From contig CAVPSB010000016.1 in the NCBI GenBank assembly GCA_963708025.1, forward strand, positions 160,001 to 224,000: a DNA stretch of 64,000 nt. The letters are read 5' to 3'. Origin of the DNA: an uncultured Candidatus Rokubacteria bacterium. GTDB lineage: Bacteria > Methylomirabilota > Methylomirabilia > Rokubacteriales > DASRDR01. The translations under genes were made by a program, and so were the position numbers. How positions within the stretch are numbered: the first letter of the stretch is position 1; every line of letters starts with the position of its first letter. The notes under the pieces were generated by a model. That model searched no databases and was not told where the DNA came from. It was given only the letters and a program-made list of their open reading frames with translations. Shown piece after piece: positions 13,309 to 61,522 of the stretch.

Positions 13309-14475
13309 TCACCGTGGCAACTCGACCCGCCGGCCCTCCTCGGCCGAGACGTAGGCGGCATAGATCACCTCCACGGTCTCGCGGGCCAGCAGCGCGCCGG
13401 AGAGCGGCTCACGACCCTCGCGCACCGCGTCCACGAAGTCCGCCATCTCTTGCGGATAGCCGCGCATCCAGTCCTCGTCGGGACTCGGGAACTGCCAGCC
13501 GGCCGTCGTCTCCACCTTCTCCGTGATGTACTCGTCGCCCCAGACCCCCGGCGCCGGCGCGTAGACCTGGAGCGTGGTGTTCGGATTGATGTTCGCCTGG
13601 ACGACGCCGTTCGACAAGTAGGCCGTGAGGAGGTTCTTCACCCCGCCCAGGCTCACGTCGGTGGCTAGGACCGTCGCCCGGGTGCCGTCCTCGAACGTGA
13701 GGATGGCGGCCGACCAGTCCTCCACGTCCTCCCACGAATCGACCAGCCACTTCTTCGCCTCGGCCCGGAACGCCGGCGTCTTCGTGAGCTGGCCGACCTC
13801 GGCGACGACGGACCGGACCCGGATGGGCGCGCCGCCCCGACGCTGGCCTTCCCAGTGCTTGAGGTGGATCACCGCGCCGATGGGGTGGGACCCCATCCGA
13901 AGGAGCGAGCCGCCACCGGCCGTGACCCAGCGCCGGGAGTAGGCGGCGTGGGAGCCGGAGTGGCTCTCCTCGGCCCGGAGGTCGAGCACTGTCCCCCCGC
14001 TCCGCTCGAGGAGCCGCCGGAGCTTCGCCACCGGCGGGGCGTAGACGAAGTTCTCGGCGTAGCCGAGGGTGACCCGGTGCTCCCGGCAGGCATCGAGGAC
14101 GGCGTCGGCGTTGGCGAGTGCCGCCTCCAGCATCGCGCGCCGCGAGAGCGCGGACGCCTCGGCGAAGCAGCCGGTCAGGGGCTTCTCGACCACGACGTGC
14201 TTGCCAGCCCGGGCCGCGTCGATGGCGAGCGCGTGGTGGACGCTCGTCTCGACGGGGAGCGTCACCAGGTGGATGTCGCGTCGCTCGAGGAGCGCCCGGT
14301 GATCGGCGTAGACGTGGGGGATGCCGAAGCTCCGGGCGAAGGCCTCCCCGCGCTCCCGCGAGCGGGAGGAGACCGCCACCAGCTCGCAGGTGGCGCCGCG
14401 CAGCGGGGCCAGGGCGTGGGCGTGGAGGTGGGCCGCGAAGCCCGTCCCGACGAGGCCAATGCCGATGCGGTTTAT
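13309..14475 (-). CDS. Gfo/Idh/MocA oxidoreductase, probable non-canonical ATA start
   Basis: Rossmann motif IGIGLVGTGFAA lies upstream of the called GTG (14379); GKHVVVEKP; in-frame stop at 14497-14499. Confidence 0.85.
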   Translation of the reverse strand: MNRIGIGLVGTGFAAHLHAHALAPLRGATCELVAVSSRSRERGEAFARSFGIPHVYADHRALLERRDIHLVTLPVETSVHHALAIDAARAGKHVVVEKPLTGCFAEASALSRRAMLEAALANADAVLDACREHRVTLGYAENFVYAPPVAKLRRLLERSGGTVLDLRAEESHSGSHAAYSRRWVTAGGGSLLRMGSHPIGAVIHLKHWEGQRRGGAPIRVRSVVAEVGQLTKTPAFRAEAKKWLVDSWEDVEDWSAAILTFEDGTRATVLATDVSLGGVKNLLTAYLSNGVVQANINPNTTLQVYAPAPGVWGDEYITEKVETTAGWQFPSPDEDWMRGYPQEMADFVDAVREGREPLSGALLARETVEVIYAAYVSAEEGRRVELPR

Positions 14476-14583
14476 CGGAACCTCCCGCCTACCCGATCAT
14501 TCGACGGCCTTCGGCCTTTGGCCCCCCTCCCCCACCCACCGGGGGGAGGGGGGAGTCGGAGGCCACGATTGCTGCACACGCTC
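14476..14583 (-). repeat. Family 1 repeat
   Basis: Same core with the GGCCGAAGGCC insert. Confidence 0.9.
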
Positions 14584-14708
14584 TGGGAGCCGGCGACGAA
14601 ATCGGCTCACGCTCATCCTACCCGGGCTGGCTTCTCGCAGCGCACCGTTTCCAGGACTGACGGGCTGGCGTTTCACTCCTGGCGCGGGCTTCGCCCGCGC
14701 CTCCGCAC

Positions 14709-14744
14709 GGGGGAGGTCCGGGAGGGGGGCGGAGCCCCCCTCAC
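14709..14744. repeat. REP-like palindrome, family 2
   Basis: GGGGGAGGTCCGGGAGGGGGGC-GGA-GCCCCCCTC. Confidence 0.6.
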
Positions 14745-14751
14745 GTTCCGC

Positions 14752-15516
14752 TCAGCCGGCCAGCGTCCCGCCGTCCACGGCGAGGATGTGGCCGGTGACC
14801 ATGCGCGAGGCGTCGGAGAGGAGGAAGACCAGTGCCCCCACCAGCTCCTCGGGCTGACCCAGCCTCCCGGCCGGCACCCGGCGCATGGCCCGCTCCCGGT
14901 ACTCGGGCTCGCGCTCGATCAGGTTGCCCATTGGGGTGTGGAACCAGGACGGCGCGATCGCGTTCACCTGGACGTCGTGAGGCGCCCACTCGACGGCGAG
15001 CCCCCGGGTAACCATCACCACGCCCCCCTTGCTCGCGCTGTAGGCGATGGTGCCGGGCAGTCCGATGCGCCCGGCGATCGAGGCGATGTTCACGATCTTC
15101 CCCCGCCGGCGCGCCAGCATGCCCCGGCCCACCGCCTGACAGCAGAGGAAGGTGCCGGTCAGGTTGATGGCGAGGATCCGGTGCCAGTCCTCGAGCGGGA
15201 ACTCGGCGGCCGGCGCGCGGCGCGTGATCCCGGCCGCGTTGACAAGCCCGTCGATGGGCCCGAGCGCGCGGGTCACCTCGTCCACCATCCGGGCGACGCC
15301 GGTGGGATCGGTCACGTCGACTCCGACACCGAGGCCCCGGCCCCCGGCCGCCACGATCTCGGCGGCCACCGCGGCCGCTCGCTCGGCGGCCACGTCCGCC
15401 ACCGCCACCGCCGCACCCGCGCTCGCCACTCCGCGGGCCATCGCGCCGCCGAGGCCGCCGCCGCCGCCGGTCACGACCACCACGCGGCCGTCGAGGTCGA
15501 AACCCGAATAAGTTAT
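14752..15516 (-). CDS. SDR oxidoreductase (gluconate 5-dehydrogenase-like)
   Basis: TGGGGGLG, NAAG, YSASK and VDGG motifs; start uncertain (ATA 15516, or a GTG inside the repeat). Confidence 0.9.
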   Translation of the reverse strand: MTYSGFDLDGRVVVVTGGGGGLGGAMARGVASAGAAVAVADVAAERAAAVAAEIVAAGGRGLGVGVDVTDPTGVARMVDEVTRALGPIDGLVNAAGITRRAPAAEFPLEDWHRILAINLTGTFLCCQAVGRGMLARRRGKIVNIASIAGRIGLPGTIAYSASKGGVVMVTRGLAVEWAPHDVQVNAIAPSWFHTPMGNLIEREPEYRERAMRRVPAGRLGQPEELVGALVFLLSDASRMVTGHILAVDGGTLAG

Positions 15517-15607
15517 TGGGAACCTCCCTCCCACCCCCCAACCCCCCTCCCCCACCGTTGGACGGCCTTCGGCCTTTGGCGGGGGGGGGGCGGATGACTC
15601 GATTCCT

Positions 15608-15618
<11 letters not shown>
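15517..15618 (-). repeat. Family 1 repeat (variant)
   Basis: GAGCGCGTGAAGGAATCG...CCAAAGGCCGAAGGCCGTCC...GGGAGGTTCCCA; contains the stop codon of the upstream kinase. Confidence 0.85.
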
Positions 15619-18439
<2,821 letters not shown>

Positions 18440-18679
18440 CCGTCCGCTCGGCAGGGTCCGGGCGGAGTCTATGGCCTGGAGCGCGCGGCTGTCAAACTCT
18501 CCGGCTCTACGGCTCGAGCTCGGGAGCTCCCGGCGGCCGACTCGCCGCACGCCACCGCCCTTGTCCCTCCGCCACCGAGCGCGCTACACTCCGGCCACGT
18601 TGACGATGGCGCGAGCCCGTGAGCTGGGCTGCCGAGTCGGGCCGCTGGCCTGGCGGTGGCTCCAGGGAACGCGCGGGAG

Positions 18680-18770
18680 ACACGCTTTGGACCGCTCTCA
18701 CGCGGCGCTACGCGGACCACCCGATGCCCTTTCACCGATGCCACGCTCGTCCATCTCGCTCATCGGGAGC
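18680..18770 (+). pseudogene. PIN/VapC toxin remnant
   Basis: ALTRRYADHPMPF continuing in a shifted frame as TDATLVHLAHRE. Confidence 0.5.
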
Positions 18771-18925
18771 CCCCGACGACGGCATTCAGGGGCGAGCAGT
18801 GGACCGACCACAACGCCAGCCGGATGGTGGACGCCGACGCCATGGACGAAGCAGGTCGCGTCCCGCGACGGCGGCAGGCGCGTCGAGAGCACCGCTCGGG
18901 TGACTCCGGGCCGCATGGATCGGCG

Positions 18926-20632
18926 GTGAAGCGATCGCTGGACGGCGCAGTTTTCCTGGTTGCGATCGCGTTCGCTGTCTGGGCGGCCCACGAGGCGTAC
19001 GTGCGCTTCCATTCCGCCTACTACAATGGCGAAGTCTTTCCGGTGCATGCCACCGAGCGACTCGGGGGAAAGGCCGTCCTGGAATTCGAGTTCACTGCGC
19101 GGCACCGGGCGCTGGCGGGGCTCTGGCTGTTTTTCGATGCAGGCGCGGATGGCCCGCCGGACGCGCGACTGGTGCTCGCCGTGCGCCGTCCGCACGACGA
19201 CCAGCCGTTCTGGTCACAGAGCGTCGAATCCGACAAAGCGCAGAAGCGGCACGGGGCGATCCTCGGTGTACTGAGCGGCCTTTCCTTCGTCCCCGGAGAC
19301 CGTTACGTGATGACGTACGCGATGCCGGAGGTTCCGGCCGGTCGTGGATGGCGGGTCAACTATCTCAGCATCGAAGGCTCGACGTCGGTGGTGCGATGGG
19401 GCAACAAGGAACGCGCGGCGAGCGAACCGCCTGTCTTGTGGCTGGAGACACGTCCTGACTTTCCGCGCTCGCCGCTCGTCGTGGGCCTGATCCTCCTGGC
19501 CATCCTCTCGCTCTTGGCCCGAGAGAAGACGCGGCTGGCGATGTCGGCCTGGTTGATCATGGCGGCCTGTTGCCTTCTGGTCGCCTCGTACGGCTGGCAG
19601 TTCCGCCTGTGGCAGTTCTGGGGTTCGTTCTGGCCGGACGAGTACCCGGCGCTCGGTCACACCGTTGCAAGGTTCCTCCGGGGTCAGATCACGTTTCAGG
19701 GAATGGCCGATATCCTGGCCGAGAATCGTAGTGGCCAGGCGTTCTTCGTGCCGCTGGCGATCGGGATCTTCGAGTCGTGGGGCCTATCGCTGCGCGAGGC
19801 ATACACGGTGGTCAATACGGCGCTGTTCTTCCTCGCCGTTGCCGCACTGTGGCGAATCATGCGCTGCTTTCGCTTGGTGGACGACCGGGCGAAGATCGCG
19901 ATCGGCCTCCTGTTCTTCGGCCATGTCTGTGTCATTCGCGCGATCGGATCGTTGCAGACCGATCTTGGTGGGCTTGCCCTGACCGTGCTATTCGCGTGGA
20001 CGATGGTGCGGGCTCTTGCCGAGGAGGGCACCGGCCGGCGCGTCGGCTGGCTCGCTGCGAGTGGGGTCGCGGGTTTCTTCGCGGCGATTACGCGAGTGGC
20101 ATTGGTGCCGTTGTTGTTGGTGCCGGTCGGCCTGTTCTTCTGGAGCTTGTGGTTTGAACGTGGCCGGGCGTGGAGGGAGCGCGGGATGTACCTGGTTCCC
20201 ACGGCCGTGGGTGGTCTCCTGCTGGCGGGCTGCTGGACGGTCCTGGGTCTGTGGGCGTCCGTGAGAGCCGTACAGGCCTATTCGGCACTGCCGGAGTTTC
20301 GAGCGGGATTTTCGTGGACAGCCTTCGCTGGCGCCTCGCTCTGGGGATTGCAGGTCGGCCTTCCGGCCCTGGTGTACGGGTGGCGGGGCTTGTTCACCGA
20401 CCGCGTGTTCGCGGCTCTGGCCGGCGCGATCTTGGGGCTGGAAGCGCTGCTGGGCTTCGGCCGAATCGTGCCATGGCTGCGCTATTGGGCGCCTCTGGCA
20501 GTTCTCGGTATCGTCCTGTTCATCTGGATCGCAAGGGCGCGCCAGAGATCGGCCTTCGTGTTGTGGTTGGGGTGGGTGACCGCGGGCTTGAATGGGTGGC
20601 TGTTGTGGCACGATCCGTTGTTCGCGTTCTAG
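18926..20632 (+). CDS. Polytopic membrane protein, possible GT-C glycosyltransferase
   Basis: TM segment, extracytoplasmic domain, FWPDEY loop, then about 10 TM segments; different codon usage from its neighbours. Confidence 0.6.
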   Translation: MKRSLDGAVFLVAIAFAVWAAHEAYVRFHSAYYNGEVFPVHATERLGGKAVLEFEFTARHRALAGLWLFFDAGADGPPDARLVLAVRRPHDDQPFWSQSVESDKAQKRHGAILGVLSGLSFVPGDRYVMTYAMPEVPAGRGWRVNYLSIEGSTSVVRWGNKERAASEPPVLWLETRPDFPRSPLVVGLILLAILSLLAREKTRLAMSAWLIMAACCLLVASYGWQFRLWQFWGSFWPDEYPALGHTVARFLRGQITFQGMADILAENRSGQAFFVPLAIGIFESWGLSLREAYTVVNTALFFLAVAALWRIMRCFRLVDDRAKIAIGLLFFGHVCVIRAIGSLQTDLGGLALTVLFAWTMVRALAEEGTGRRVGWLAASGVAGFFAAITRVALVPLLLVPVGLFFWSLWFERGRAWRERGMYLVPTAVGGLLLAGCWTVLGLWASVRAVQAYSALPEFRAGFSWTAFAGASLWGLQVGLPALVYGWRGLFTDRVFAALAGAILGLEALLGFGRIVPWLRYWAPLAVLGIVLFIWIARARQRSAFVLWLGWVTAGLNGWLLWHDPLFAF

Positions 20633-21597
20633 GAGTCGCGCCAGGCGCTGGCGCGATCGAGGGTCGCGGTGGCCTCCTCGTCCAGGCGGAGCTCGATGCC
20701 CCCCAGGAGCTCCTGGAGCTGGGCCACCGAGGTCGCGCTGGCGATCGGCGCCGTGATGCCGGGGCGGTGGGCCAGCCACGAGAGCGCGACCTGGGCCGGC
20801 GTCGCGCCGAGCCCGGCCGCCACCTTCTCGACGGCGGCCAGCACCGCGAAGCCGCGGTCGGTCATGTAGGCCTTCTGCACGCCGGCGGCCCGGGCGGTCG
20901 CGGGCAGGCTCGCGTCGCGCCGGTACTTGCCGGAGAGGAAGCCGCTCCCGAGCGAGGAGTACGGGATGACCCCCACGCCCTGCTCGAGGCAGAGCGGCTC
21001 GAGCTCGCGCTCGTACTCGTCGCGGAACACGAGGTTGTACTTCGGCTGGAGCGACTCGTAGCGCACGTAGCCGCGCTTGTCGCTCTCCCACAGGGCGCGC
21101 GTGAGCCGCCACGCGTGGTGGTTCGAGGCGCCGATGTAGCGCACCTTGCCCTGGCGCACCAGGTCGTCGAACGCGCGCAGCGTCTCCTCGAGCGGGGTGT
21201 CGCGATCGTCCCAGTGGGCCTGGTAGAGGTCGATGTAGTCGGTCTCGAGCCGGCGCAGCGAGGCCTCGACCCCCTGCATGATGTGCTGGCGCGAGAGGCC
21301 GGTGTCGTTCGGTCCCGGCCCCATCGGTCCCATCACCTTGGTGGCGATGACCACCGCCTGGCGGTTCCGGCGCGCCTTCAGCCAGGCACCGAGCACCGCC
21401 TCCGACTCGCCGCCCTTGTTGCCGGGCGCCCAGCGGGAGTAGACGTCCGCCGTGTCGATGAAGTTGCCGCCGGCCTCGAGATAGGCGTCGAGGACGGCCT
21501 CCGACGCCTTCTGGTCGGTCGTCCACCCGAACGTGTTGCCCCCGAGACAGAGCGCCGCCACCCGGAGCCCGCTGCGACCCAGCCTGCGCATCAGCAT
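20629..21597 (-). CDS. Aldo/keto reductase
   Basis: GGNFIDTADVY, IATKV, DYIDLYQAH, GKVRYIGASN. Confidence 0.95.
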   Translation of the reverse strand: MLMRRLGRSGLRVAALCLGGNTFGWTTDQKASEAVLDAYLEAGGNFIDTADVYSRWAPGNKGGESEAVLGAWLKARRNRQAVVIATKVMGPMGPGPNDTGLSRQHIMQGVEASLRRLETDYIDLYQAHWDDRDTPLEETLRAFDDLVRQGKVRYIGASNHHAWRLTRALWESDKRGYVRYESLQPKYNLVFRDEYERELEPLCLEQGVGVIPYSSLGSGFLSGKYRRDASLPATARAAGVQKAYMTDRGFAVLAAVEKVAAGLGATPAQVALSWLAHRPGITAPIASATSVAQLQELLGGIELRLDEEATATLDRASAWRDS

Positions 21598-21721
21598 GAT
21601 GACTCTCCCCTGACGAGGTTTCCTCTGGCGGGTGCCCGCCGAGCGAGCCTACCACGATCCGCTCGGCCAGCGATCGCCGCGTAGACAGGCAGGGCGACGT
21701 CCATGAGTCGGGAACGGACTC

Positions 21722-21811
21722 AAAGCGTGTGAAGGGATCGGGGCCTCCGGCTCCCCCCTCCCCCCGGTGGGTGGGGGAGGGGGGCTGGGGGGGTGGGCGG
21801 GAGGTCCCGAA
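21722..21811 (+). repeat. Family 1 repeat
   Basis: AGCGTGTGAAGGGATCGGG...core...GGCGGGAGGTCCCGAA. Confidence 0.9.
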
Positions 21812-21815
21812 GATC

Positions 21816-21970
21816 TCAGTCAGGCACGTAGGCCGGGCCGCGCACCTCGAACCGGGTGGACTCCACGATCCGTCCCGCCGGGTCAACCAGGGAGAGGGCG
21901 TGCTGCCCGGCGACCGGCGCCCAGAGCACGGCGCCGGTCGCGGCGCCGAGGTCGGTCTCGTCCAGCGTAA
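21816..21970 (-). pseudogene. Orphan C-terminal fragment resembling the penicillin-binding protein 1C C-terminus
   Basis: LDETDLGAATGAVLWAPVAGQHALSLVDPAGRIVESTRFEVRG. Confidence 0.5.
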
Positions 21971-22061
21971 CTCCTCGCCATCCCCCGTTTTCTTCGGATC
22001 AAGGGGTTGGGGCGTCGTCGCTCGGGCGGGAATCGGGGGTACATTGAGCGTGGAGGTGGCC

Positions 22062-23108
22062 ATGTCGGGACCGTCATTTGCTTCCGGGCCGCCAGGGGTG
22101 TCGCCCCGGGCGACCATGCATCACCTGATCCGGGGGCTGTGGATCTCACGGGCCCTCTGGGTCGCCGCAACGCTCGGGATCGCGGACCTGCTCGAGGAGC
22201 CGAAGAACGCCGCTGAGCTGTCGCATGTGACGGGGACGCACGGCCCCTCGCTCCAGCGCGTTCTGCAGGCTCTGTGCAGCGTAGGAGTGCTCACCCAGGA
22301 CGACGCCGGGCGGTTCGCACTGACGCCCGTCGGTGCCACCCTGCGGAGCGACGCCCCCGGCTCCCTGCGGGCCTGGGCGAGCATGGTGCTGGGCGGTGAG
22401 ACCTACCAGGCCTGGGGGGCCCTGATGCACAGCGTGCGCAGCGGCAGGGTCGCCTTCGACCATCTCTTCGGGCAAGGTGTCTGGCAATACCGGACCGGCC
22501 ATCCGGAGTACGCGCGGCTCTTTGACGACGCGATGACAGGGCTCACGGCCGGAATCGCCCCCGCCGTGACCGAGGCTTATGACTTCGGCGCGATCGGCAC
22601 GCTCGTCAACGTGGGGGGCGGGCATGGGGAGCTACTGGCTGTCCTCCTCCAGGCCAGTCCCGGCATGCGAGGCGTCGTGTTCGACCTGCCCCACGTGGTG
22701 GCCGGCACCGGTCCGTTCTTGGCCCGAGCGGGCGTCCTAGACCGCTGCGACGTGGTCGGCGGGAGCTTCTTCGACGGCGTTCCCGGCGGGGGTGACGCCT
22801 ACATCCTCAAGAGCATCATTCACGACTGGGATGACGACTCCGCCACGGCGATCCTACGGAGCTGCCGCCGGGCGATGTCGCCGAGGAGCACCCTGCTTCT
22901 GGTCGAGCGGCTGCTGCCCACCGTGGTCGAGCCGTCCGGCGCGAGCGAGACCGTGACCTTCTCGGACCTCAACATGATGGTCATGCACGGGGGGCGCGAG
23001 CGCACGGAGGTCGCGTACCGCGCACTGCTCGAGGCGGCCGGTCTTCGACACGCGCGGACGGTCCCGACGTCGGTCGGATTCAGCGTGGTCGAGGCGGTGC
23101 CCGCCTGA
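22062..23108 (+). CDS. SAM-dependent O-methyltransferase (dimerisation domain plus Methyltransf_2)
   Basis: GGAGG SD; VNVGGGHG, FDLPHV, LKSIIHDWDD, GGRERT. Confidence 0.9.
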   Translation: MSGPSFASGPPGVSPRATMHHLIRGLWISRALWVAATLGIADLLEEPKNAAELSHVTGTHGPSLQRVLQALCSVGVLTQDDAGRFALTPVGATLRSDAPGSLRAWASMVLGGETYQAWGALMHSVRSGRVAFDHLFGQGVWQYRTGHPEYARLFDDAMTGLTAGIAPAVTEAYDFGAIGTLVNVGGGHGELLAVLLQASPGMRGVVFDLPHVVAGTGPFLARAGVLDRCDVVGGSFFDGVPGGGDAYILKSIIHDWDDDSATAILRSCRRAMSPRSTLLLVERLLPTVVEPSGASETVTFSDLNMMVMHGGRERTEVAYRALLEAAGLRHARTVPTSVGFSVVEAVPA

Positions 23109-29539: not shown

Positions 29540-30193
29540 TCAGGCGGTCGCGCGGGCGAGGACGAGCCACTCCCGGCCCTGGCGGCCGTCGGCCGAGGTC
29601 GCCGGGACGTAGGTTTCCTCGAAGGCGAAGCGCGGCTCGAAGAGGCGGCGGACCTCGGTCTCGGTCGTGGCGAACGGCGGCCCGATCTTCGGGTCGCCGG
29701 GACGCCGCGGTCCGTCCCGTCCCTCCGGTGGGCGCTCCCCGATAGGGAAGAAGCAGGCCAGCAGCCAGCCGCCGGGCTTCAGGAGCGCGTGCACCAGGGC
29801 GACGTACTCCGGTCGCCGGGCGGGATCGATGGCGCAGAAGCACGTGTACTCCCAGAGCCCGTCGAAGGCCCCCCGGTAGTCGGCGGCCAGGCCGAAGACG
29901 TCGCGCTGCTCGAAGGCCACCTCGACCCGCGCCTCGGCGGCCAGTGCGCGGGCCTCGCGGATCGCCGGCTCGGCGAAGTCGAAGGCCCGGACCCGGTAGC
30001 CCCGCCGGGCCAGGAGCCGGGCGTCGTGGCCGCGGCCACAGCCGGGCACCGCGATGTGCTGACCGGGGAGCCGCGGATGCGTCGCGAGGTAGTGGACCAG
30101 CGGCGGCGCCGGGCCGCCCAGCTCCCAGCGGTCCCCCTGGCGCTCGTAGAGACCCTGCCAGAACGCCGCCTCGTTGACGGTCGGCTCGGTCAT
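29540..30193 (-). CDS. Thiopurine S-methyltransferase-like (TPMT) methyltransferase
   Basis: FWQGLY...WELGGPAPPL, VPGCGRGHD, WEYTCFCAI, GPPF. Confidence 0.88.
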   Translation of the reverse strand: MTEPTVNEAAFWQGLYERQGDRWELGGPAPPLVHYLATHPRLPGQHIAVPGCGRGHDARLLARRGYRVRAFDFAEPAIREARALAAEARVEVAFEQRDVFGLAADYRGAFDGLWEYTCFCAIDPARRPEYVALVHALLKPGGWLLACFFPIGERPPEGRDGPRRPGDPKIGPPFATTETEVRRLFEPRFAFEETYVPATSADGRQGREWLVLARATA

Positions 30194-30279
30194 TCGGGAC
30201 CTCCCGCCTACCCCCCCAGCCCCCCTCCCCCACCCACCGGGGGGAGGGGGGGCCGGAAGCCCGATCGCTTCGCGCGCTC
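30194..30279 (-). repeat. Family 1 repeat
   Basis: Fills the whole gap from the tesA TGA to GGGAGGTCCCGA-ATG. Confidence 0.9.
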
Positions 30280-52228: not shown

Positions 52229-52244
52229 CATCGGCCCCGCCCCC

Positions 52245-52986
52245 TTAGTAGGTGGCGCGGCCGCCGGAGAGGTCGTACACCGCGCCCGTCGAGAACGAGC
52301 ACTCGTCGGAGGCCAGCCAGGCGACCAGCGCGGCCACCTCCTCGGGACGGCCGACGCGCCCCATGGGGATCTTGGAAACGAGCAGGTCCACCGTGCTCTT
52401 CTCCATCTGCTGGAGGATCTCGGTCTCGATCACGGCCGGCGCCACCGCGTTGACCAGGATGCCGCGGGTGGCGACCTCCTTGGCGAGCGCCTTGGTGAGG
52501 CCGATGACGCCGGCCTTGGCGCTCGAGTACGGCACCAGGGTCGGGTTCCCCTCCTTGCCGGCGATCGAGGCGATGTTCACGATCCGCCCGCCGCCCTGCC
52601 CCAGCATCACCCTGATCGCCGCCCGGCAGCAGCGGAAGACGCTGGTGAGGTCCACCGCGATCACGCGGTCCCAGTCCTCGTCGGCCAGCTCCCAGATCGG
52701 GAAAGAGCGGCCGGTGATCCCGGCGTTGTTGACGAGGACGTCGAGGCGGCCCCACCGCTCGACCACCGACCGCACGGCGCCGTCGACCTCGGCGGTTTGG
52801 GTCACGTCGGCGGTCAGGGCGACGGCCTCGCCACCGACCCGCCGGGCCGCCGCCTCGACCCCGGCCTCGTCGACGTCCAGCAGCGCGACCCGGGCGCCGC
52901 CGGCGGCCAGGCGCGTGGCGATGGCGAGCCCGATGCCGCGGGCGGCCCCAGTCACCAGCGCCGTCCTCGGGCCCGGCGACCCCCCG

Positions 52987-52994
<8 letters not shown>
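52245..52994 (-). CDS. SDR oxidoreductase
   Basis: TGAARGIG, NNAGI, YSSAK, DLSGGRATY. Confidence 0.93.
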
Positions 52995-53748
<754 letters not shown>

Positions 53749-53988
53749 AACGCATCCGCGTACCCCGAGCGACACGGAGCGGCGCCCCCGAGGACTCTGG
53801 CGGTCCACAGCCGCGTCGGGGACCGGATCGAGTGCGGACCCGCCGAGTGTCGGAGCCGGCCCGGGCGACTCAGCGGCCCTCGCCGGGAGTCTGCTTGCCG
53901 GCACCAACCGCGATCCCGAGGCCTGCACGGTACAGGAGGGTCCGGCGGTTTGCCTTCCCGCGCGCGGCGCTGCTACAATGCCGCGGCC

Positions 53989-54564
53989 ATGGCTCCAGCC
54001 ACCGATCCGGCGCCGCTCACCCCCGGGGACCTGGTCGAGGACGCGGCCCGCGACCTCGCGCGTCAGTCCTACGCCCCCCGGCCGCCCATCGCCGGCGTCA
54101 CTCTGGGGGAGGTGCCCGTCTTCCGGAGCCCCGACGGGCTCTTCGCCGAGGTCGTGCGCCTGGATCCCGAGCGCCAGGTCGAGGGAGTGGCGGGGTTTCG
54201 CCCCGTCCAGTGGAACTGGAGCCTGCTCGAGCCCGGCGCCGTGAAGGCCTGGCACCTCCACCTCGACCAGGAGGACCTCTGGATCGTCCCGCCCGACTCG
54301 GCGCTGCTCGTGGGCCTCGTGGACCTCCGGCGCCGCTCCCCGACGGCCTCGACGGTTCAGCGCCTCGCGCTGGGCGGGGGGCGCTGTCACCGGCTGCTGA
54401 TCCCCCGCGGCGTCGCCCACGGGGTGGCCAACCTGGGAACGCGGCCCCAGGCGATGCTCTACGCGGTGAACCGGTTCTTCTCGGCGGATCCCGAGCAGAC
54501 CGACGAGTGGCGGCTCCCCTGGGACCGGTTCGGGGCGAGCTTCTGGGAGATGGGGCGAGGATAG
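53989..54564 (+). CDS. RmlC-like (dTDP-4-dehydrorhamnose 3,5-epimerase family) cupin
   Basis: PGAVKAWHLH, DLRRRSPT, LLIPRGVAHG; TGCTACAAT -10 element at 53971-53979. Confidence 0.85.
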   Translation: MAPATDPAPLTPGDLVEDAARDLARQSYAPRPPIAGVTLGEVPVFRSPDGLFAEVVRLDPERQVEGVAGFRPVQWNWSLLEPGAVKAWHLHLDQEDLWIVPPDSALLVGLVDLRRRSPTASTVQRLALGGGRCHRLLIPRGVAHGVANLGTRPQAMLYAVNRFFSADPEQTDEWRLPWDRFGASFWEMGRG

Positions 54565-57000
54565 CTATCGCGCCGCCACCGGCGACCCGAGGAGCGGCCG
54601 GGGGGCGGCGAGGCGGAAGACCCGGACCGGCTGCTCGACGTTCCGGAGCGCCTGCTCCCCCAGGTCCTCGCAGGCGAACTCGTTGCCCAGCCGGCTTCGG
54701 GTCTCGGGACCGAGCATGATCGTGTCCGGCTCCCCGAGGGCGGCCAGTCGCGCCGCCACGTTCGTCACCGATCCCGACGCCGTGTAGACCCAGCGCGTTC
54801 CGGCCATGCCCTCGATCTTCGTCGCCCCGACCGTGGCCACCCCGGAGTTGACGCCGATGTGGAGCGCGATGGGCTCGGGGAGGTCCCTGAGCTTGGCGTT
54901 GATCTCGTGCGTTCGCCGGACGATCCCCAGCGCCGCCTTCACCGCGGCCCGGGCGTGGCGGCGAGGGTCGACGTCCTGGAAGATCACCATGAGGCCGTCC
55001 CCGGCCGTCTCGTTCACGTCGCCCCCCCGCTTGAGCACCTCGTCCAGGAACGAGCCGAAGTAACGCTCCACCAGGCGGTTGACCTGGTCTCCGTCCAGGC
55101 GCTCGCTGAGCCGCGTGTAGCCCACGATGTCCACGAACAGGACCGAGACGTCCGTCTCGCGCTTGGCCAGCTCCGGGGCCTCCGGCGCCTGCTCGATCAG
55201 CGTCTGGACGGTCCGGGGCACGAACTTGGAGAGGTTCGACCGGATGCTCTCCAGGAGCTCCACCCGCCGCAGCGCCACCTTCAGCTCGGTGTTGACCGCC
55301 TCCAGCGTCGTGTAGGCCCGGGCGTTCTCCAAGGCGACGGCGCTCTGGTTCACCAGCACGCGGAGAAGCCGGAGGTCTTCCGTCGAGTAGGCCGCCCCCG
55401 ACCGCTTCGGGCCCAGGGCCAGGAAGCCGGTCACCCGGTCGTGGAAGACGACGGGCGCGACCAGCTCCGCACCCAGGGCCCCCATCTCGGGCAGACAGGC
55501 GTCCCGGAACTCCCGCAGCCGCGGATCCTCCTCCAGCTGCTCGCGCGTCACCGGCGCCCGGACGCGGGCGAGGCACCGCGGGAGCGGCCCCTCGGCCGGC
55601 ATCGGCGCCCCGGCCTCGACGTCGTCCTGCCCGGTCAGCACGTAGCCTCCACTCGCGTCGTGGTACAGAGCCAGGGCCTGGCGGGTCGGGTGGAGCAGGC
55701 GCTCGATCGTCTCGTGGATCAGGGCCACGATGCGCTGGAGGTCGAGTAGGCTCGTCATGGTCTCGGCGACCTGCTCCAGCGACTGCTGGATGTCGAAGCG
55801 CTCGCGGAAGAACAGACGGTCGATCACCTTCTGCGTCCGCACGTAGACGGGGTTCAGCAAGGCGACGACGGCCACGGCGACCACCCCGGCCGCCAGGAGC
55901 GGCGAGGAGGCGACGTCCAGCGTCGCGAAGGTCAGGTCGAGCAGGACGATGGCGCCGGCGTAGGCCGCCACCACCAGACCGGTGACGACCGAGTAGATGG
56001 TGCCGAGGCGGATGGCCGCCCGCACGTCGAAGAGGTTGTAGCGAACCATCGCGTAGGCGACCGCCACCGGGAACACGAAGTTGAGCTTCCACAGCTCGTT
56101 GAGGAACGGGACCGGAACCCGGAACACCGCCTCGATCGCGGTGCCGAGCACCCCCGGCAGATCCCCCACCGCGAAGCCGGCGCCGAGGACCCGCGCCCGC
56201 TGGCGAACCAGCGGGGTGGCACCCGCCACGGCGGTCCGCGCCAGCCCCGCGAGGACCAGCATCAGCGCCAGCCCCCAGTAGGCGGCGCCCACACCGGGCA
56301 GCACCACGTACTGGATCGGATGCAGGCGGACCTGCAGCAGAACCGCGAGCAGGGCGGAGATGAGGTAGGGCAGCCAGACGAGGCGGGGGTAGCGGCGAAC
56401 GATGGTGCGCCGCTGGGGGAACGTGAGCGCCAGGTGGGCGTAGATCGCGGGGGAGAACGCCCAGGCGGTCATGAACAGCGCCGTGAACCGGTAGGTCGTG
56501 TGGGCGTCGGCGTAGGTGACGTCGATGAGGAACCAGCCGAGGCAGAACGCGAGGAAGAGCCAGCTCCGCCAGACGCCCGGCTGCAAGTAGAAGACGAGCG
56601 CGCCCAGGGCGACGTAGAGCAGCCCGGCGAGCAGCCCCTCGACCAGGAAGCGCTTGAAGTCGCGGTGGGAGTACGCGCGGCTCGCGACGTCGGCCTCGAC
56701 CAGCGTGCCGCGGCGGTTGAGGAGGTAGTGGAACTTCGTCCCCACCGGGTGCCGCGCGACCTCGGCCTGGAGCTCCCGGCCGGAGGTGAGGAACTGCCCG
56801 TTGACCGCCCGGACCCAGTCGAACGGCTCGAGCCCGCCCCGCTCGGCGCCGCCGACGGCGACCAGGAGGTTCTCCATCACCATGAAGCCGGTGAAGGGCC
56901 GCCCCAGGCTCTGGTAGCGGTCGAGCGTCACCTGGCCGCCCACGAGGAGGACCAGGCTGATCAGGGCCCCGGCCAGGATCTTCCCGCGCATGGTCACCAT
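54565..57000 (-). CDS. Membrane adenylate/guanylate cyclase (PDZ-like, multi-TM, GAF, cyclase)
   Basis: VLFVDIVGYT, ETAGDGLM, VTNVAARL; GAF motif LGPKRSG. Confidence 0.88.
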   Translation of the reverse strand: MVTMRGKILAGALISLVLLVGGQVTLDRYQSLGRPFTGFMVMENLLVAVGGAERGGLEPFDWVRAVNGQFLTSGRELQAEVARHPVGTKFHYLLNRRGTLVEADVASRAYSHRDFKRFLVEGLLAGLLYVALGALVFYLQPGVWRSWLFLAFCLGWFLIDVTYADAHTTYRFTALFMTAWAFSPAIYAHLALTFPQRRTIVRRYPRLVWLPYLISALLAVLLQVRLHPIQYVVLPGVGAAYWGLALMLVLAGLARTAVAGATPLVRQRARVLGAGFAVGDLPGVLGTAIEAVFRVPVPFLNELWKLNFVFPVAVAYAMVRYNLFDVRAAIRLGTIYSVVTGLVVAAYAGAIVLLDLTFATLDVASSPLLAAGVVAVAVVALLNPVYVRTQKVIDRLFFRERFDIQQSLEQVAETMTSLLDLQRIVALIHETIERLLHPTRQALALYHDASGGYVLTGQDDVEAGAPMPAEGPLPRCLARVRAPVTREQLEEDPRLREFRDACLPEMGALGAELVAPVVFHDRVTGFLALGPKRSGAAYSTEDLRLLRVLVNQSAVALENARAYTTLEAVNTELKVALRRVELLESIRSNLSKFVPRTVQTLIEQAPEAPELAKRETDVSVLFVDIVGYTRLSERLDGDQVNRLVERYFGSFLDEVLKRGGDVNETAGDGLMVIFQDVDPRRHARAAVKAALGIVRRTHEINAKLRDLPEPIALHIGVNSGVATVGATKIEGMAGTRWVYTASGSVTNVAARLAALGEPDTIMLGPETRSRLGNEFACEDLGEQALRNVEQPVRVFRLAAPRPLLGSPVAAR

Positions 57001-57080
57001 TCTAAGGCCTCGTTCCGGACGTTTCCTGCTATCGTCTTCCCGGGCTCCGGTCCGACCACGCACGCGGAGGGGCGACACTC

Positions 57081-58013
57081 ATGACGATGGAGGGCGCGGT
57101 GAAGTTCGCAGTGGCCATCCCCCAGGCGTTCAGCCGGCCGCACGTGGACGTCCTCGGCCTCCAGACCTTCCTGGGGCGGGCCGAGGCGCTCGGGTACGAC
57201 TCGGTCTGGACTCAGGAGCAGATCCTCGGCATCGCCGGGACGCTGGAGCCGGTCACGCTGCTGGCGTACGCCGCCGCGCTGACGCGACGGGTCCGGCTGG
57301 GGGTCGCGGTGCTCATCACGCCGCTCCGGAGCCCGGTCCAGCTCGCCAAGAGCCTCGGCAGCGTGGACCAGCTCAGCGGCGGCCGCCTGATCGTCGGCGT
57401 GGGCCTCGGTGGCCGGACGAACGTCTACCCGGCCTTCGGCATCTCGGCGGAGCGCCGCGTCCGGCGGTTCGCCGAGGGCATCGAGGTGATGAAGCGGCTC
57501 TGGACCGAGGAGCGGGTGACCTTCAAGGGCGACTTCTGGACGCTGGACGACGCTCCCATGGCGCCGAAGCCGGTCCAGAAGCCCCATCCCCCGATCTGGT
57601 TCGGCGCCCGGCACCCCGACGCCCTCCGCCGGGCGGTGGCGCTCGGCAACGGCTTCATCGGGGCGGGGTCGTCGTCCACCGCTGACTTCACACAGCAGGT
57701 CGCGCTGATCCGGCAGTACCTGGCCGAGGGAAAGCGCGACCCGGCCAGCTTCGCCCTGGCGAAGCGCGTCTACCTGGCCGTCGACCCCGACAAGGCCCGC
57801 GCGATGGCGCGCCTCCGTGACTGGTTCGGCTGGTTCTACAGGAACGAGGAAATGGCGCACGAGGTCGCGATCGCGGGGAGCGCCGAGGAGTGCGCCGCCG
57901 GGCTCCGCGAGATCCGGGCGGCCGGCGCCGAGCTGCTCCTGCTGAACTTCACCTCCGACGACCTCGCGAACGCGGAGCTGGCCATGCGCGAGATCGTCCC
58001 CAGGATCGTGTAA
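57081..58013 (+). CDS. LLM-class flavin-dependent oxidoreductase
   Basis: AEALGYDSVW, DQLSGGRLIVGVG, PKPVQKPHPPIW. Confidence 0.92.
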   Translation: MTMEGAVKFAVAIPQAFSRPHVDVLGLQTFLGRAEALGYDSVWTQEQILGIAGTLEPVTLLAYAAALTRRVRLGVAVLITPLRSPVQLAKSLGSVDQLSGGRLIVGVGLGGRTNVYPAFGISAERRVRRFAEGIEVMKRLWTEERVTFKGDFWTLDDAPMAPKPVQKPHPPIWFGARHPDALRRAVALGNGFIGAGSSSTADFTQQVALIRQYLAEGKRDPASFALAKRVYLAVDPDKARAMARLRDWFGWFYRNEEMAHEVAIAGSAEECAAGLREIRAAGAELLLLNFTSDDLANAELAMREIVPRIV

Positions 58014-58102
58014 GACCGGCTGTAGCAATCGGCCCCTCCGGCACCCCCCTCCCCCCAGTGGGTGGGGGAGGGGGGCTGGGGGGGTGGGCGGGAGGTCCCG
58101 AA
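58014..58102 (+). repeat. Family 1 repeat
   Basis: Runs from the upstream TAA to GGGAGGTCCCGAATAA-ATG. Confidence 0.9.
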
Positions 58103-58105
58103 TAA

Positions 58106-58486
58106 ATGAAGGCGTACGGGCTGACCATCCTACGAATCGTCGTCGGCGCGCTCTACCTGGTCCACGGCTACCGGCTCCTGGTCGTGACGACACCGGCCGG
58201 CGCCGGACGGTTCGCCGCGGCCACCTTCGGGCTTTCCCACCCCGGCTTGATGGGCTGGGTCCTGATCGCCGTCTACGGGCTGGGGGGCCTGATGCTGCTG
58301 GTGGGCGTGCTGACCCGGGGCGCCGCCGCCGTCACCGCGCTGGTCTCGGCGGTCACGCTCGTCCGGGTCCAGCTCCCCCAGGGTGTCCTCTCGTCGAGCT
58401 TCGAGCACGCCCTCCTGCTCACGGTGGCGACGGTCACCCTCCTGATGCTCGGCTCCGGCCCCCTGGCCCTGCGTCCCTCGAAATAG
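58106..58486 (+). CDS. DoxX-family membrane protein
   Basis: ILRIVVGALYLVHG...GVLTRGAA...GSGPLAL. Confidence 0.8.
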   Translation: MKAYGLTILRIVVGALYLVHGYRLLVVTTPAGAGRFAAATFGLSHPGLMGWVLIAVYGLGGLMLLVGVLTRGAAAVTALVSAVTLVRVQLPQGVLSSSFEHALLLTVATVTLLMLGSGPLALRPSK

Positions 58487-58487
58487 G

Positions 58488-59480
58488 TCAGCGGAACGCG
58501 GGGAAGACCTCGCGGCTCAGCAGCTCCAGCTCTCGCAGGATGTGGGCGTGGGGCATCCCCGGGAAGTAGAGCCGGAAGATCAGGTGGTCGGTGCCGTAGG
58601 CCTCGACGAAGCGGCGGATCTGGGCGACGCAGCGCTCGGGGCCCCCGACCACGAAGCGGTCGGCCCCGATGGCGTCCAGCCGGTCGACCGGCGTCCGGTC
58701 CTCGGCGCCGATGAGCGGGTGCTTCCACTTCCCGCCCCCGTACTCGTCCCGGTAGTTGACCAGCAGGTGCCGCTCCGCTAGCTCGATGGCGCGGGCATCC
58801 GTGTCGGCGATGACCGTGTCCCGGGTGAGGGGCCAGGTCACCGGAGCGGGGCGCCCCGCCGCCGCCAGCTCGCGCTGGTAGGCCTGCTTGGCGTCCAGCA
58901 GCTTCGCGAGGTTCGCGGTCGGCCCGGGCACCCACGCATCGCCCAGCCGGGCCGCCCGGCGCAGCGACAGCTCGCCCCAGCCGCCGATCCAGATCGGCGG
59001 GTGAGGCTTCTGGACCGGCTTGGGCTCGATGCGCGCGTTCTCGAGCGGGTAGTGGGGCCCGGGGTGACTGACGCCATCGCGGGTCCACAGCGCGCGGATC
59101 ACCTCCAGCGCCTCCGCGAAGCGCTTCCCGCGGCCCTCGAGGGCCGTCCGGTAGAGGGCGAACTCGTCCGGCTTGTAGCCGATGGCGACGCCGAAGACGA
59201 CCCGGCCGCCGGACATGACGTCGAGGACCGCCGTGTCCTCGGCCGCCCGGACCGGGTCGTAGAAGGGCAGCACGGCGATGTCCGTGCCGAGCTGGACCCG
59301 CGAGGTCCGGGTCGCAAAGCCGGCGAGCACGACGAGCGGCGAGGGCCAGTAGTGGTCGCGGACGCCGTGGTGCTCCTCCATCCAGACCGAGTCGAAGCCG
59401 AGGGCCTCGCCGCGCTCCACCTCGGCCAGCGCCTCGCGGTAGAAGCCGCCCCCTTCGGTAGGGATGAACCCGAACCTCGC
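58488..59480 (-). CDS. LLM-class oxidoreductase; native start codon apparently missing
   Basis: RFGFIPTEGGGFY...GFDSVWMEEHHG; no canonical start directly before RFGF. Confidence 0.85.
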   Translation of the reverse strand, partial: ARFGFIPTEGGGFYREALAEVERGEALGFDSVWMEEHHGVRDHYWPSPLVVLAGFATRTSRVQLGTDIAVLPFYDPVRAAEDTAVLDVMSGGRVVFGVAIGYKPDEFALYRTALEGRGKRFAEALEVIRALWTRDGVSHPGPHYPLENARIEPKPVQKPHPPIWIGGWGELSLRRAARLGDAWVPGPTANLAKLLDAKQAYQRELAAAGRPAPVTWPLTRDTVIADTDARAIELAERHLLVNYRDEYGGGKWKHPLIGAEDRTPVDRLDAIGADRFVVGGPERCVAQIRRFVEAYGTDHLIFRLYFPGMPHAHILRELELLSREVFPAFR

Positions 59481-59481
59481 G

Positions 59482-59990
59482 CAGGCGGTCGGGTTCCGGG
59501 AGGCAGCGGCGGCGACGGCCGGGTGGGTCAGCCTCGCGCTGGCCTTCGACGTCGCGCTCTACTTCTACGCGCGGTGGACCTTCGCCCGCGATCCGCGGCT
59601 GGCCGGGGTCCCGGGATTCGACCCGGACGCCGCGGCCTGGCAGATGGCGCTCGAGTTCCTCACCGGCTACGTGGTCGAGTACTCCCTGTCCGTGGACAAC
59701 ATCTTCGTGTTCGTCCTCGTCCTCGGGTACTTCGCGGTGCCGGCGCGGCATCAGCGCCGCGTGCTCTTCTTCGGGATCCTCGGCGCGCTCGTGTTCCGGG
59801 CGGCGTTCGTCGCGCTGGGATCGGTCCTCATGCAGTTCCACTGGGTCATCCTGGATCTTCGGGGCGTTCCTAATCCTGACCGGCGTGAAGCTCGCGTTCT
59901 CCGAGAGCACCATCGAGCCCGAGCGCAACCTGCTCCTGCGGCTGCTGCGGCGCGTGATGCCGATGACGGCGGGCTTTCGCGGATGCCCGG
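59482..59990 (+). pseudogene. Alx/TerC-family internal fragment
   Basis: EFLTGYVVEYSLSVDNIFVF, QRRVLFFGILGAL; frameshift near 59850; both ends missing. Confidence 0.8.
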
Positions 59991-60026
59991 CCCCCCTTTC
60001 CCTCCCTCTCTCCCAAGGGGAGGAGG

Positions 60027-60236
60027 GAACAGAAGTTCCACACGGCGACCCGTGGCCACCGACAATCGGGCCGGCGAGTGGAGGTGTGCTTCGTCGATGG
60101 TGAGCGGCTGATCGGCTACGCGCTGGGGTACGACTCCCGGCGCCCGGGCTTCTTCCTCTTCCCGGCCGATCCGCGGAGCAACAACCTCAGGATCTTCGTC
60201 GTCTCGGGCGCCGTCGCCGCCGTGCGGTATCTGTAG
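60027..60236 (+). pseudogene. Orphan C-terminal fragment of a conserved hypothetical protein (DUF6982-like)
   Basis: GRRVEVCFVDGERLIGYALGYDSRRPGFFLFPADPRSNNLRIFVV. Confidence 0.55.
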
Positions 60237-60274
60237 CTCGTCAGGACCGGACCGCTCCGCTCCTTCGTCCTGCC

Positions 60275-61522
60275 TCACGGGCGCGGCCAGACCACCTGGC
60301 CCGCCTTCACCACGGTCTGGACGTGGTTCACGCCGTAGAGGTACGGGAGGTGGTAGTAGTTCGGGATGTCGAGCACGGTCAGGTCGCACCAGCGCTCCGG
60401 CGTCAGCTGGCCGATCTGGCCCTGGAGGCCGAGGGCGCAGGCGCCGCCGACGGTCGCGGCCCGGATCGCCTCCTCCACCGTCATCCGCATCTGGGTGCAG
60501 GCCAGCGTGATCATGAGCTGCATGTTCGGCGTGTAGGACGACCCCGGGTTGAAGTCGGTGGCGAGCGCCACCCGGACGCCGGCCTCGAGAAAGGCGCGGG
60601 CCGGGGCGTAGGGCAGCCCGAGGAAGAAGGCGGTGCCGGGCAGGAGCGTGGCGGTGACGTCCGCCGCCTTCATGGCGCGGGCGTCCTCCGGGGTCGCGTG
60701 GAGCAGGTGGTCGGCCGACAAGGCGTGGAGCTCCGCCGCCAGGGCGGCGCCGCCGGAGCGGGAGAACTCGTCGGCGTGGAGCTTCGCCCGGAGGCCGTGC
60801 TCGGCGCCGGCCGTCAGGATGCGCCGCGACTGCTCGACCGAGAACACGCCGGCCTCGCAGAAGACGTCGCAGTACTCGGCCAGCCGCTTGTCCGCCACCA
60901 TCGGGAGCATCTCGTTCACGACGAGGTCCACGTAGCCCTCGGTGTTCCCCCGGAACTCGGGCGGCACCTCGTGGGCGCCGCAGAAGGTCGCGTGGACCTC
61001 GACCGGGTGGGGATCGGCCAGGAGCCGGATCGCGTTGAGGATCTTGACCTCGTCGGCCGTGGTGAGGCCGTAGCCGGACTTGGCCTCCAGCGTCGTGGTG
61101 CCGTGCTGGAGCACGAGGTCGAGCCGCCGCATCGCCACCGCCACCAGCTCGTCGGTCGCGGCCTCGCGGGTGGCCTCGACGGTGGAGAGGATGCCGCCGC
61201 CGGCGGCCGCGATCTCCTGGTAGCTGGCGCCGGCGATCCGGCGGGCGAACTCCTCCTCCCGGGATCCGGCGAAGATCAGGTGGGTGTGGGAGTCGACGAA
61301 GCCGGGCATCACCACCCGGCCGTGGGCATCGAGCTCCCGTCCGTCCTTCAGGAGCCAGACGTTCTTGTGGATCTTGGAGGTCTTGCCGACCCAGATGATC
61401 TTGCCGGCGTTGGCGGCCAGTGCGCCGCCCCGGATGACGCCGAGCGGACCCCGGTCCAGGTCGGGGTCGAGCGTGAGCAGCTCGCCCGCCCCGGTGAGGA
61501 TGAAGTCGGCGGGCTGGGTTAT
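60275..61522 (-). CDS. hutI: Imidazolonepropionase
   Basis: PGFVDSHTHLIFAG, EAKSGYGL, DVFCE, KLHADE, ATDFNPG; start is ATA 61522 or a TTG/GTG inside the repeat. Confidence 0.95.
   Translation of the reverse strand: MTQPADFILTGAGELLTLDPDLDRGPLGVIRGGALAANAGKIIWVGKTSKIHKNVWLLKDGRELDAHGRVVMPGFVDSHTHLIFAGSREEEFARRIAGASYQEIAAAGGGILSTVEATREAATDELVAVAMRRLDLVLQHGTTTLEAKSGYGLTTADEVKILNAIRLLADPHPVEVHATFCGAHEVPPEFRGNTEGYVDLVVNEMLPMVADKRLAEYCDVFCEAGVFSVEQSRRILTAGAEHGLRAKLHADEFSRSGGAALAAELHALSADHLLHATPEDARAMKAADVTATLLPGTAFFLGLPYAPARAFLEAGVRVALATDFNPGSSYTPNMQLMITLACTQMRMTVEEAIRAATVGGACALGLQGQIGQLTPERWCDLTVLDIPNYYHLPYLYGVNHVQTVVKAGQVVWPRP

Follow-up and report, generated by a model that had tools for sequence, protein, structure and literature searches.

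Candidate AUA and other near-cognate start codons behind a repeat-borne Shine-Dalgarno sequence in an uncultured Candidatus Rokubacteria bacterium

Introduction

Translation of the Escherichia coli genes infC and pcnB starts at AUU, and in infC this start serves autoregulation. Here we describe ATA codons that probably act as start codons in an uncultured Candidatus Rokubacteria bacterium, at the genes for a Gfo/Idh/MocA-family oxidoreductase, a short-chain dehydrogenase (SDR) and an imidazolonepropionase-like amidohydrolase (hutI), each directly behind the Shine-Dalgarno sequence (SD) of a high-copy intergenic repeat. The three genes lie in a stretch of 64,000 nt (the window; assembly GCA_963708025.1, contig CAVPSB010000016.1, here C16:160001-224000, C with a number denoting a contig), which belongs to a genome of 8.17 Mb in 49 contigs with 71.2% GC. 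The closest described systems are weak start codons on the one hand and small repeats on the other. In E. coli, initiation at AUA, AUC, AUU and CUG is reported to reach 1-2% (0.02-3%) of that at AUG (10.1101/063800). In Staphylococcus aureus, AUA starts of infC, ccpN and citZ with extended SDs were mapped by Ribo-RET and are reported to give about 10-30% of AUG (PMC13009471). REP2 of Neisseria and IR of Borrelia are described as repeats that carry a ribosome binding site and start codon fused to an open reading frame (ORF) (PMC3184786), and pneumococcal BOX elements reportedly can contribute the start codons of ORFs (PMC3049150).

The starts proposed here resemble the AUA and AUU starts of S. 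aureus (infC, ccpN, citZ, cvfC1) in that a near-cognate codon stands at the true N-terminus behind a strong and well-spaced SD, reduced output is expected and gene callers miss the start (PMC13009471). By the same account there are few such starts in S. aureus, all with Ribo-RET mapping and with conservation between species, whereas those proposed here are many, derived in one lineage, placed at a repeat junction in a genome of 71% GC, and predicted from sequence. The codon set AUA, AUC, AUU and CUG found here is the one described as initiating measurably in E. coli (10.1101/063800), and infC of the present genome and its family likewise has a non-canonical start, AUC. Near-cognate starts occur in very few E. 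coli genes, whereas here there are about 40 candidates, all beside one repeat family.

REP2 and Borrelia IR are, like the repeat described here, interspersed elements with internal stem-loops that lie directly upstream of genes and fuse a ribosome binding site and start codon to the ORF (PMC3184786). They are said there to carry a promoter and ATG as well, whereas the repeat here often has a near-cognate triplet, and unlike them it provides at its left end the stop codon of the upstream gene, thus forming an operon spacer. A relationship by sequence to Neisseria REP2 is unlikely given the composition of G- and C-runs. REP/BIME, Correia-type and BOX elements and MITEs (miniature inverted-repeat transposable elements) have similarly been described as high-copy, G/C-rich, hairpin-forming, about 100 nt long and intergenic (PMC3184786, PMC3049150). 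In contrast to REP/BIME, MITE and Correia-type elements, the repeat here has direct CTGAG ends, and neither terminal inverted repeats, for which it was inspected by eye, nor a covarying target-site duplication were found. A literature search returned no account of an expanding repeat that supplies an SD while leaving near-cognate starts, which is no proof of absence.

Results

ATA codons at three genes of the window

An earlier note on the window had pointed to an apparent ATA start directly behind a repeat-borne SD in three genes, to the rarity of ATA otherwise in this DNA, and to one of the genes having no canonical codon before its Rossmann motif. These observations held. The genes lie on the minus strand, and the ATA was confirmed at 14475, 15516 and 61522, in each case 5-6 nt behind GGGAGG or GGGGGG. 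Codon usage was counted in 3,483 confident ORFs, with the last 250 codons taken from each. ATA accounted for 122 of these 870,750 codons (0.14 per 1000), which makes it the second-rarest sense codon. ATC occurs at about 40 per 1000 as an elongation codon and is thus about 285 times commoner.

The Gfo/Idh gene, recognised from its ORF, Pfam and orthologues, encodes 388 aa when read from the ATA (13309..14475, ATA at 14473..14475). The repeat copy before it (14476..14587, minus strand) consists of the left end CCCAGAGCGTGTGCAGCAAT, a G/C hairpin, a GGCCAAAGGCCGAAGGCCGTC module and the SD end, with GGGAGG at 14481..14486, 5 nt upstream of the ATA; the junction reads GGGAGG-ttccg-ATA-AAC. An in-frame TGA (14499..14497), 8 codons upstream of the ATA, bars any start further upstream. 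On the other side the nearest ATG, GTG or TTG is a GTG at a distance of 32 codons, by which the Rossmann GxGxxA motif has already been read. If functional, the gene therefore needs a non-canonical start. The Pfam family GFO_IDH_MocA covers residues 5-114, corresponding to profile positions 2-109. In all four genera of the same family that were aligned (80-83% identity) an ATG or GTG start falls exactly on the ATA, and relatives begin, for example, M-E-P-L-GIGFIG or V-D-R-I-GIGFIG as compared to I-N-R-I-GIGLVG here. A search of metagenome contigs returned 80 loci, none of them close (top identity 82%), which were used for N-terminus alignment alone. Among the 25 taken from these, with at least 52% identity and the N-terminus covered, 18 have ATG and 5 have GTG at the ATA position; the remaining two start two codons later.

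The SDR gene (14752..15516, 254 aa, minus strand) was supported by its ORF, Pfam and an orthologue. Its proposed start, the ATA at 15514..15516, follows a GGGAGG at 15523..15528 with 6 nt between them (GGGAGG-ttccca-ATA-ACT), within a repeat copy at 15517..15621. Residues 11-200 match adh_short from profile position 1 to 190, and the closest orthologue (73% identity) has its ATG one codon upstream of the ATA position. As the earlier note had said for both SDR and hutI, there are in-frame canonical codons inside the repeat: for SDR these are GTGs 6 and 13 codons upstream of the ATA, and a further GTG lies 11 codons downstream of it. The left end of the same repeat copy holds the TGA stop of a sensor-kinase gene (15610..15608), and the last few codons of the kinase are encoded by the repeat (15608-15621).

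hutI is a single-copy gene with an Amidohydro_1 domain (60275..61522, 415 aa, minus strand), read from the ATA at 61520..61522. The SD-like GGGGGG at 61529..61534, the end of an 8-G run, stands 6 nt upstream (GGGGGG-tcccga-ATA-ACC). The repeat copy (61523..61655) belongs to a subfamily with GGGGAGGGGTCGGGGGTGG, in which other copies read ATGA at this place. Its in-frame alternatives are a GTG 11 and a TTG 12 codons upstream. In three of four orthologues the aligned codon is the start (TTG, GTG, TTG); the fourth starts with GTG one codon upstream. The left terminal CTGAG of this copy provides the TGA stop of a hutU-like ORF, at 61653-61655.

The same junction with a canonical start is found before a TPMT-like gene (30191..30205, minus strand), which reads GGGAGG-tcccga-ATG-ACC with the ATG at 30193..30191. 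At the repeat end GGGAGGTCCCGAATAAATGAAGG (58088..58112, plus strand) the junction ATA is out of frame, and the gene uses an ATG 4 nt on.

Triplets behind the repeat SD in the whole genome

The codon following the repeat copies was tabulated genome-wide, as the earlier note had suggested, and ATA was found to recur in frame, alongside ATG, GTG, TTG, CTG, ATC and ATT. The first census covered 339 repeat right ends, 194 of them with a coding ORF open from the SD. At a spacing of 3-10 nt, ATG was in the coding frame in 54 cases and out of frame in 7; for ATA these numbers were 17 and 5, and 14 further copies with ATA were non-coding. The second census found a start-like codon at 4-10 nt from the repeat SD in 171 coding ORFs, to which the repeat's ribosome binding site and start triplet are thereby fused. 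Canonical codons accounted for 117 of these (ATG 92, GTG 13, TTG 12). Near-cognates, counted where this interval held no canonical codon, were CTG (25), ATA (16), ATC (9) and ATT (4). Once those followed by a canonical start no more than 4 codons on had been removed, 43 near-cognate candidates were left: 21 CTG, 13 ATA, 7 ATC and 2 ATT.

The spacing from SD hexamer to ATA was 5-7 nt in 13 of the 16 cases. At 0.14 ATA per 1000 codons the chance expectation for in-frame ATA at these positions is far below one, so the 16 cannot be ordinary codons. Moreover, ATA outnumbers ATC at the junctions (16 to 9) despite the much greater frequency of ATC elsewhere, which is not expected of internal isoleucines after an upstream GTG. 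No ATA start that convinced came out of scans of GGAGG-type sites away from repeats.

It is highly improbable that these codons are ATGs misread through errors of assembly or base calling, even though they lie beside extreme G/C hairpins and a high-copy repeat, in a multi-contig bin with an estimated contamination of 8.18%. In the same context (TCCCGAAT, next G or A, then ACC) the codon is ATG at 30193 and in many other copies, and ATG junctions number 92 against 16 with ATA. Neighbouring bases differ from those of orthologues as well (AAG to AAA in the gene for LarC, GAT to AAC in Gfo/Idh), and mis-polishing would impose the majority CTGAG or ATGA, not the minority ATAA.

The repeat element

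The repeat is intergenic and about 85-130 nt long. Read toward the downstream gene it has a left end CTGAGAGCGTGTGAAGGAAT, a long C-run/G-run hairpin, optional GGCCAAAGGCCGAAGGCCGTC modules and a right end GGGAGGTCCCGAA. The right end occurs in 207 copies here, whereas the 30 relatives examined, which belong to the same family and order, have 0-2 copies each. The 21-nt module has 482 occurrences with at most two mismatches, whereas its reversed control has none. Two exact-pattern scans of species-representative genomes, with the hairpin core and with a degenerate right end, gave no match. Many copies sit between co-oriented genes directly after a stop codon, and the TGA that ends the upstream gene is often part of the left end.

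Information content is high up to GGGAGGTCCCGAA, after which come a variable triplet and just a weak CTGAG. This junction triplet is ATG in most gene-adjacent copies, and the consensus of the repeat itself is a CTG 7 nt behind the SD. In the subfamily of the hutI and LarC copies, 41 regular-expression matches were obtained, of which 7 were judged not to be repeats; 25 of the remaining 34 copies have ATGA at the junction, and the hutI and LarC copies have ATAA. ATAA is a common junction variant in non-coding repeat copies too.

The element does not have the make-up of a MITE, as its ends are direct CTGAG motifs and 152 full copies showed no covariation between the left flank and the right. Terminal inverted repeats were not evident by eye, no formal search for them having been made. 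A model of target-site duplication, with insertion at the TGA of ATGA and the last element base turning ATG into CTG, was considered and dropped: the left flanks of the CTG and ATA genes are mostly CTGAGA, not ATGAGA, and the flanks do not covary. We also looked for a short ORF inside the repeat that ends at the junction TGA or TAA, as in termination-reinitiation, and by eye, with no formal test, saw no consistent frame because the lengths of the G-runs vary.

In its left arm the repeat has a conserved CCTCCG that is complementary to its own CGGGAGG, for example 14555-14565 with 14481-14487, and these are paired in the predicted fold of the Gfo/Idh copy. When the RNA of four junctions was folded, the three with ATA had z-scores between -0.2 and -0.4 and the one with ATG had -2.15, which is no sign of a specific structure beyond composition. 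Tandem arrays of whole repeat units, each with SD and ATGA and with a period of about 100-110 nt, are present at C2:216028-216640 and C32:131837-132286. At C11:26228-26322 ARAGORN called a tRNA-Ile(AAT) of 95 nt and 81% GC. Both this and two further calls with four-base anticodons probably arose falsely from G/C-rich repeats.

Orthologues of genes with a candidate ATA start

The expectation that the ATA stands where the N-terminus should be was borne out in all seven ATA genes that were aligned, exactly in five and to within one codon in two. In addition to Gfo/Idh, SDR and hutI, a pyridoxal phosphate (PLP)-dependent enzyme has its ATA on the aligned ATG of all four orthologues, one of them 90% identical (ATG ACC CCG CCG as compared to ATA ACG CCG CCG here). 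For LarC the ATA falls exactly on the orthologous start in 5 of 5, and for an SMP-30-like lactonase in the one orthologue aligned. In an enoyl-CoA hydratase the orthologous ATG lies one codon upstream of the ATA (2 of 2). The ATA itself is not conserved: five other genera and the related metagenome contigs read ATG, GTG or TTG.

Pfam was run on 40 of the 43 filtered candidates, leaving out three CTG candidates on C49, C6 and C7. In 8 of the 13 ATA-started proteins the first domain begins at profile positions 1-5 within the first 4-21 residues, for instance Ni_insertion at residue 4 (position 1) and BPD_transp_1_N at residue 5 (position 4). The first domain begins later in 4 of the 13, and one has no family.

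Several of these genes might instead start at an in-frame GTG or TTG inside the repeat, which would give an N-terminal extension rich in G, R and W and make the ATA an internal isoleucine. Such open codons exist for SDR and hutI at the positions given above, for LarC (GTG 11 codons upstream) and for a permease (GTG 26 codons upstream), and the G-runs before them could serve as weak SDs. We nevertheless consider this improbable. In-frame stops 6-8 codons upstream (6 in the PLP enzyme) exclude it for Gfo/Idh, the PLP enzyme and the SMP-30-like gene, and enoyl-CoA hydratase has no canonical codon within its 32 open codons upstream. Gfo/Idh, the PLP enzyme and enoyl-CoA hydratase have no usable canonical start, whereas SDR, hutI and LarC have the in-frame codons just named. 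Such a start would also leave the second-rarest codon exactly on the orthologous start unexplained, copies with ATG at the junction have the same upstream GTG or TTG codons and yet retain the ATG, and the best SD lies downstream of those codons.

A start at the next canonical codon downstream, the proteins being functional without their first residues, appears very unlikely. Little of a domain would be lost in the SMP-30-like protein (GTG at +6), SDR (+11, adh_short position 2), a hydrolase (+12) and enoyl-CoA hydratase (+14). However, no SD precedes those codons in the sequences inspected, the full N-terminus is kept in orthologues, and conserved N-terminal elements would be deleted in Gfo/Idh (+32), hutI (+69), the PLP enzyme (+119), the permease (+27) and LarC (+15).

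Candidate CTG, ATC and ATT starts

In 12 of the 21 CTG cases the frame is closed 6 codons upstream by a TAG of the element itself, and there is no canonical start ahead of the conserved N-terminus. Among these other near-cognate candidates Pfam sets the N-termini correctly, for example with Hydant_A_N at residue 4, RuvC at residue 5 (profile position 3), Queuosine_synth at residue 6 and BPD_transp_1_N at residue 2. The orthologues of ruvC have TTG, GTG, CTG and TTG at the aligned codon, and those of serA, an ATT case, start 1-3 codons upstream. The housekeeping genes ruvC and queA (both CTG), like hutI and larC, have no paralogue, and the paralogues of serA, another housekeeping gene, are all 31% identical.

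At C25:159813-165679 ruvC, a gene with a tRNA-binding domain and queA each stand behind a repeat, with CTG 7 nt after GGGAGG and no usable canonical start; the next GTG of ruvC, 16 codons downstream, would lose the catalytic Asp. ATC is found 5-9 nt behind the repeat SD at C14:473877, C28:69940, C18:400396 and C22:42802, where two ABC ATPases, a CoxL-like molybdoenzyme and a CoxS-like 2Fe-2S protein would be expected to begin.

Related soil strains

Related strains were compared by means of Logan contigs of four soil-metagenome runs, placed at a likeness of at least 90%. Among the matches listed there was one RNA run, which shared 0.06 of words. One related contig type joins 14469 to 14748, skipping 278 nt, with 11 other letters between. 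On the gene strand it has no repeat and reads ...GGGCC ATG GAT, then CGC ATC GGC, so that ATG GAT stands against ATA AAC here. The missing stretch (14470-14747) lies between SDR and Gfo/Idh; its gene-proximal 112 nt are the repeat, and the other part of about 165 nt (14588-14751) lies outside it. At SDR another related contig has a repeat that reads GGGAGGTCCCGAACA ATG CCC GAG, then TAT TCG, with the SD, 8 nt and then the ATG, and the same position in this genome reads GGGAGGTTCCCA ATA ACT, then TAT TCG. As homology breaks one codon past the ATA, the ATA and the next codon came with the repeat event or after it. The related contigs read ATG at both comparable sites, Gfo/Idh and SDR, and the ATA is thus a derived state tied to the repeat junction.

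It could be that insertion of the repeat destroyed the starts and that the ATA, CTG, ATC and ATT genes are young, untranslated pseudogenes that have not yet decayed. The ATG of the relatives at both sites fits this, and the confinement of the repeat to one lineage (207 copies against 0-2 in each of 30 relatives, and no match in the species collection) means that the events may be recent. Still, we regard it as unlikely. It would mean the death of about 40 genes together, yet every one of them retains a full-length frame and intact N-terminal domains, and they include ruvC, queA, serA, hutI and larC in single copy. Nor is the new triplet a random codon: in almost every case it is a near-cognate of AUG at a distance of 5-7 nt from the SD. 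Differences from the related strains fall on third codon positions at 33 of 35 listed sites (21 of 22 in Gfo/Idh and 12 of 13 in SDR), as counted by hand among the differences listed, which were 40 of 216.

Translation machinery

The 3' end of the 16S rRNA reads GGATCACCTCCTTTCT, and its ..CACCTCCTTTCT faces the GGGAGG(T) of the repeat, a strong SD that is complementary to this tail and functionally spaced. The initiator tRNA is of the canonical type, having a C1xA72 mismatch, three G-C pairs and the anticodon CAU, and no UAU anticodon was found among the tRNAs of the genome. infC (C31:378329) has no canonical start and reads GGAGGG, 8 nt, ATC ACG ACA CTG. The opening ATC-ACS/TCS-ACA-CTG is common to all 9 genomes of the family. 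One relative has an ATG two codons upstream of this ATC, and two relatives have an in-frame stop at that distance, so that the AUC start is forced there. AUC initiation behind a strong SD is an ancestral feature of infC in this family.

Initiation factor 3 (IF3) of this genome has no residue that is unique among 13 aligned sequences. The earlier note had thought of systematic AUA initiation, perhaps through relaxed discrimination by IF3. As a trait of the organism the former was not supported, since no convincing ATA start was found away from the junctions and ATA is one of several near-cognates there; the latter found no support in an IF3 without unique substitutions, a canonical initiator tRNA and anti-SD, and an infC that keeps its conserved AUC start.

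Discussion

Taken together, these results point to initiation at near-cognate codons driven by a strong SD, which was probably installed by a portable repeat that carries a stop, a hairpin, an SD and a start. About 40 intact genes next to this repeat most likely start at ATA, CTG, ATC or ATT on the start position of their relatives, as judged from alignments and domain boundaries. Initiation at AUA is likely, yet it is restricted to the repeat junctions, belongs to a wider near-cognate set, and is derived, not conserved.

The following course of events would account for this. Where the repeat came to abut a gene, the native start and the first one or two codons would have been replaced or altered. 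The near-perfect SD would then hold the 30S subunit, with GGAGGT pairing to ACCUCC of the 16S tail at a spacing of 5-7 nt, and the ordinary fMet-tRNA would initiate at AUA, CUG, AUC or AUU with reduced efficiency. The product would have a normal N-terminus and a lower protein level. The ATA may have come from an end variant of the element, ATAA(C/A), from gene conversion between copies, or from point mutation with selection for lower output. Tuned low expression is a possible role of the ATA starts.

Several observations weigh against this interpretation. Close relatives read ATG at the Gfo/Idh and SDR sites, and the alleles with ATA may be young ones that are mildly deleterious or that even inactivate the gene. 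In the four metagenome runs none of the listed contigs spans this genome's own repeat-gene junction, so that they neither confirm nor contradict the ATA. The genome is a multi-contig bin with some estimated contamination, and polishing beside a high-copy repeat could impose the majority base and inflate the CTG class, although it would not create ATA. The junction ATA occurs in the 14 non-coding and 5 out-of-frame copies as well, and its presence there is not in itself a sign of selection for start function. For SDR, hutI, LarC and several others an in-frame GTG or TTG within the repeat is open. Finally, an efficiency of 1-2%, as in E. coli, would give very low output.

A wider reading of the SD-driven near-cognate starts is possible, and we put it forward tentatively. 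A mobile, lineage-specific stop-hairpin-SD-start cassette may have overwritten the starts of dozens of genes, so that about 40 of them, among these ruvC, queA, serA, hutI and larC, would now depend on AUA, CUG, AUC or AUU. Its spread would reset translation rates throughout the genome, maybe conditionally through pairing of the left arm (CCUCC) with its own SD.

For annotation the consequence is that about 40 genes of this genome, among them genes for DNA repair and biosynthesis, will be shortened, extended too far or missed altogether by standard gene callers. The repeat also offers a natural test set, with the same SD and spacer before ATG, GTG, TTG, CTG, ATA, ATC and ATT, which could be used to gauge start-codon strength in an uncultured, high-GC soil phylotype. 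The finding joins two phenomena that have been known separately, small repeats that donate ribosome binding sites and weak near-cognate starts behind strong SDs. It suggests that the expansion of one repeat family can rewrite start codons, and hence translation levels, genome-wide within one lineage.

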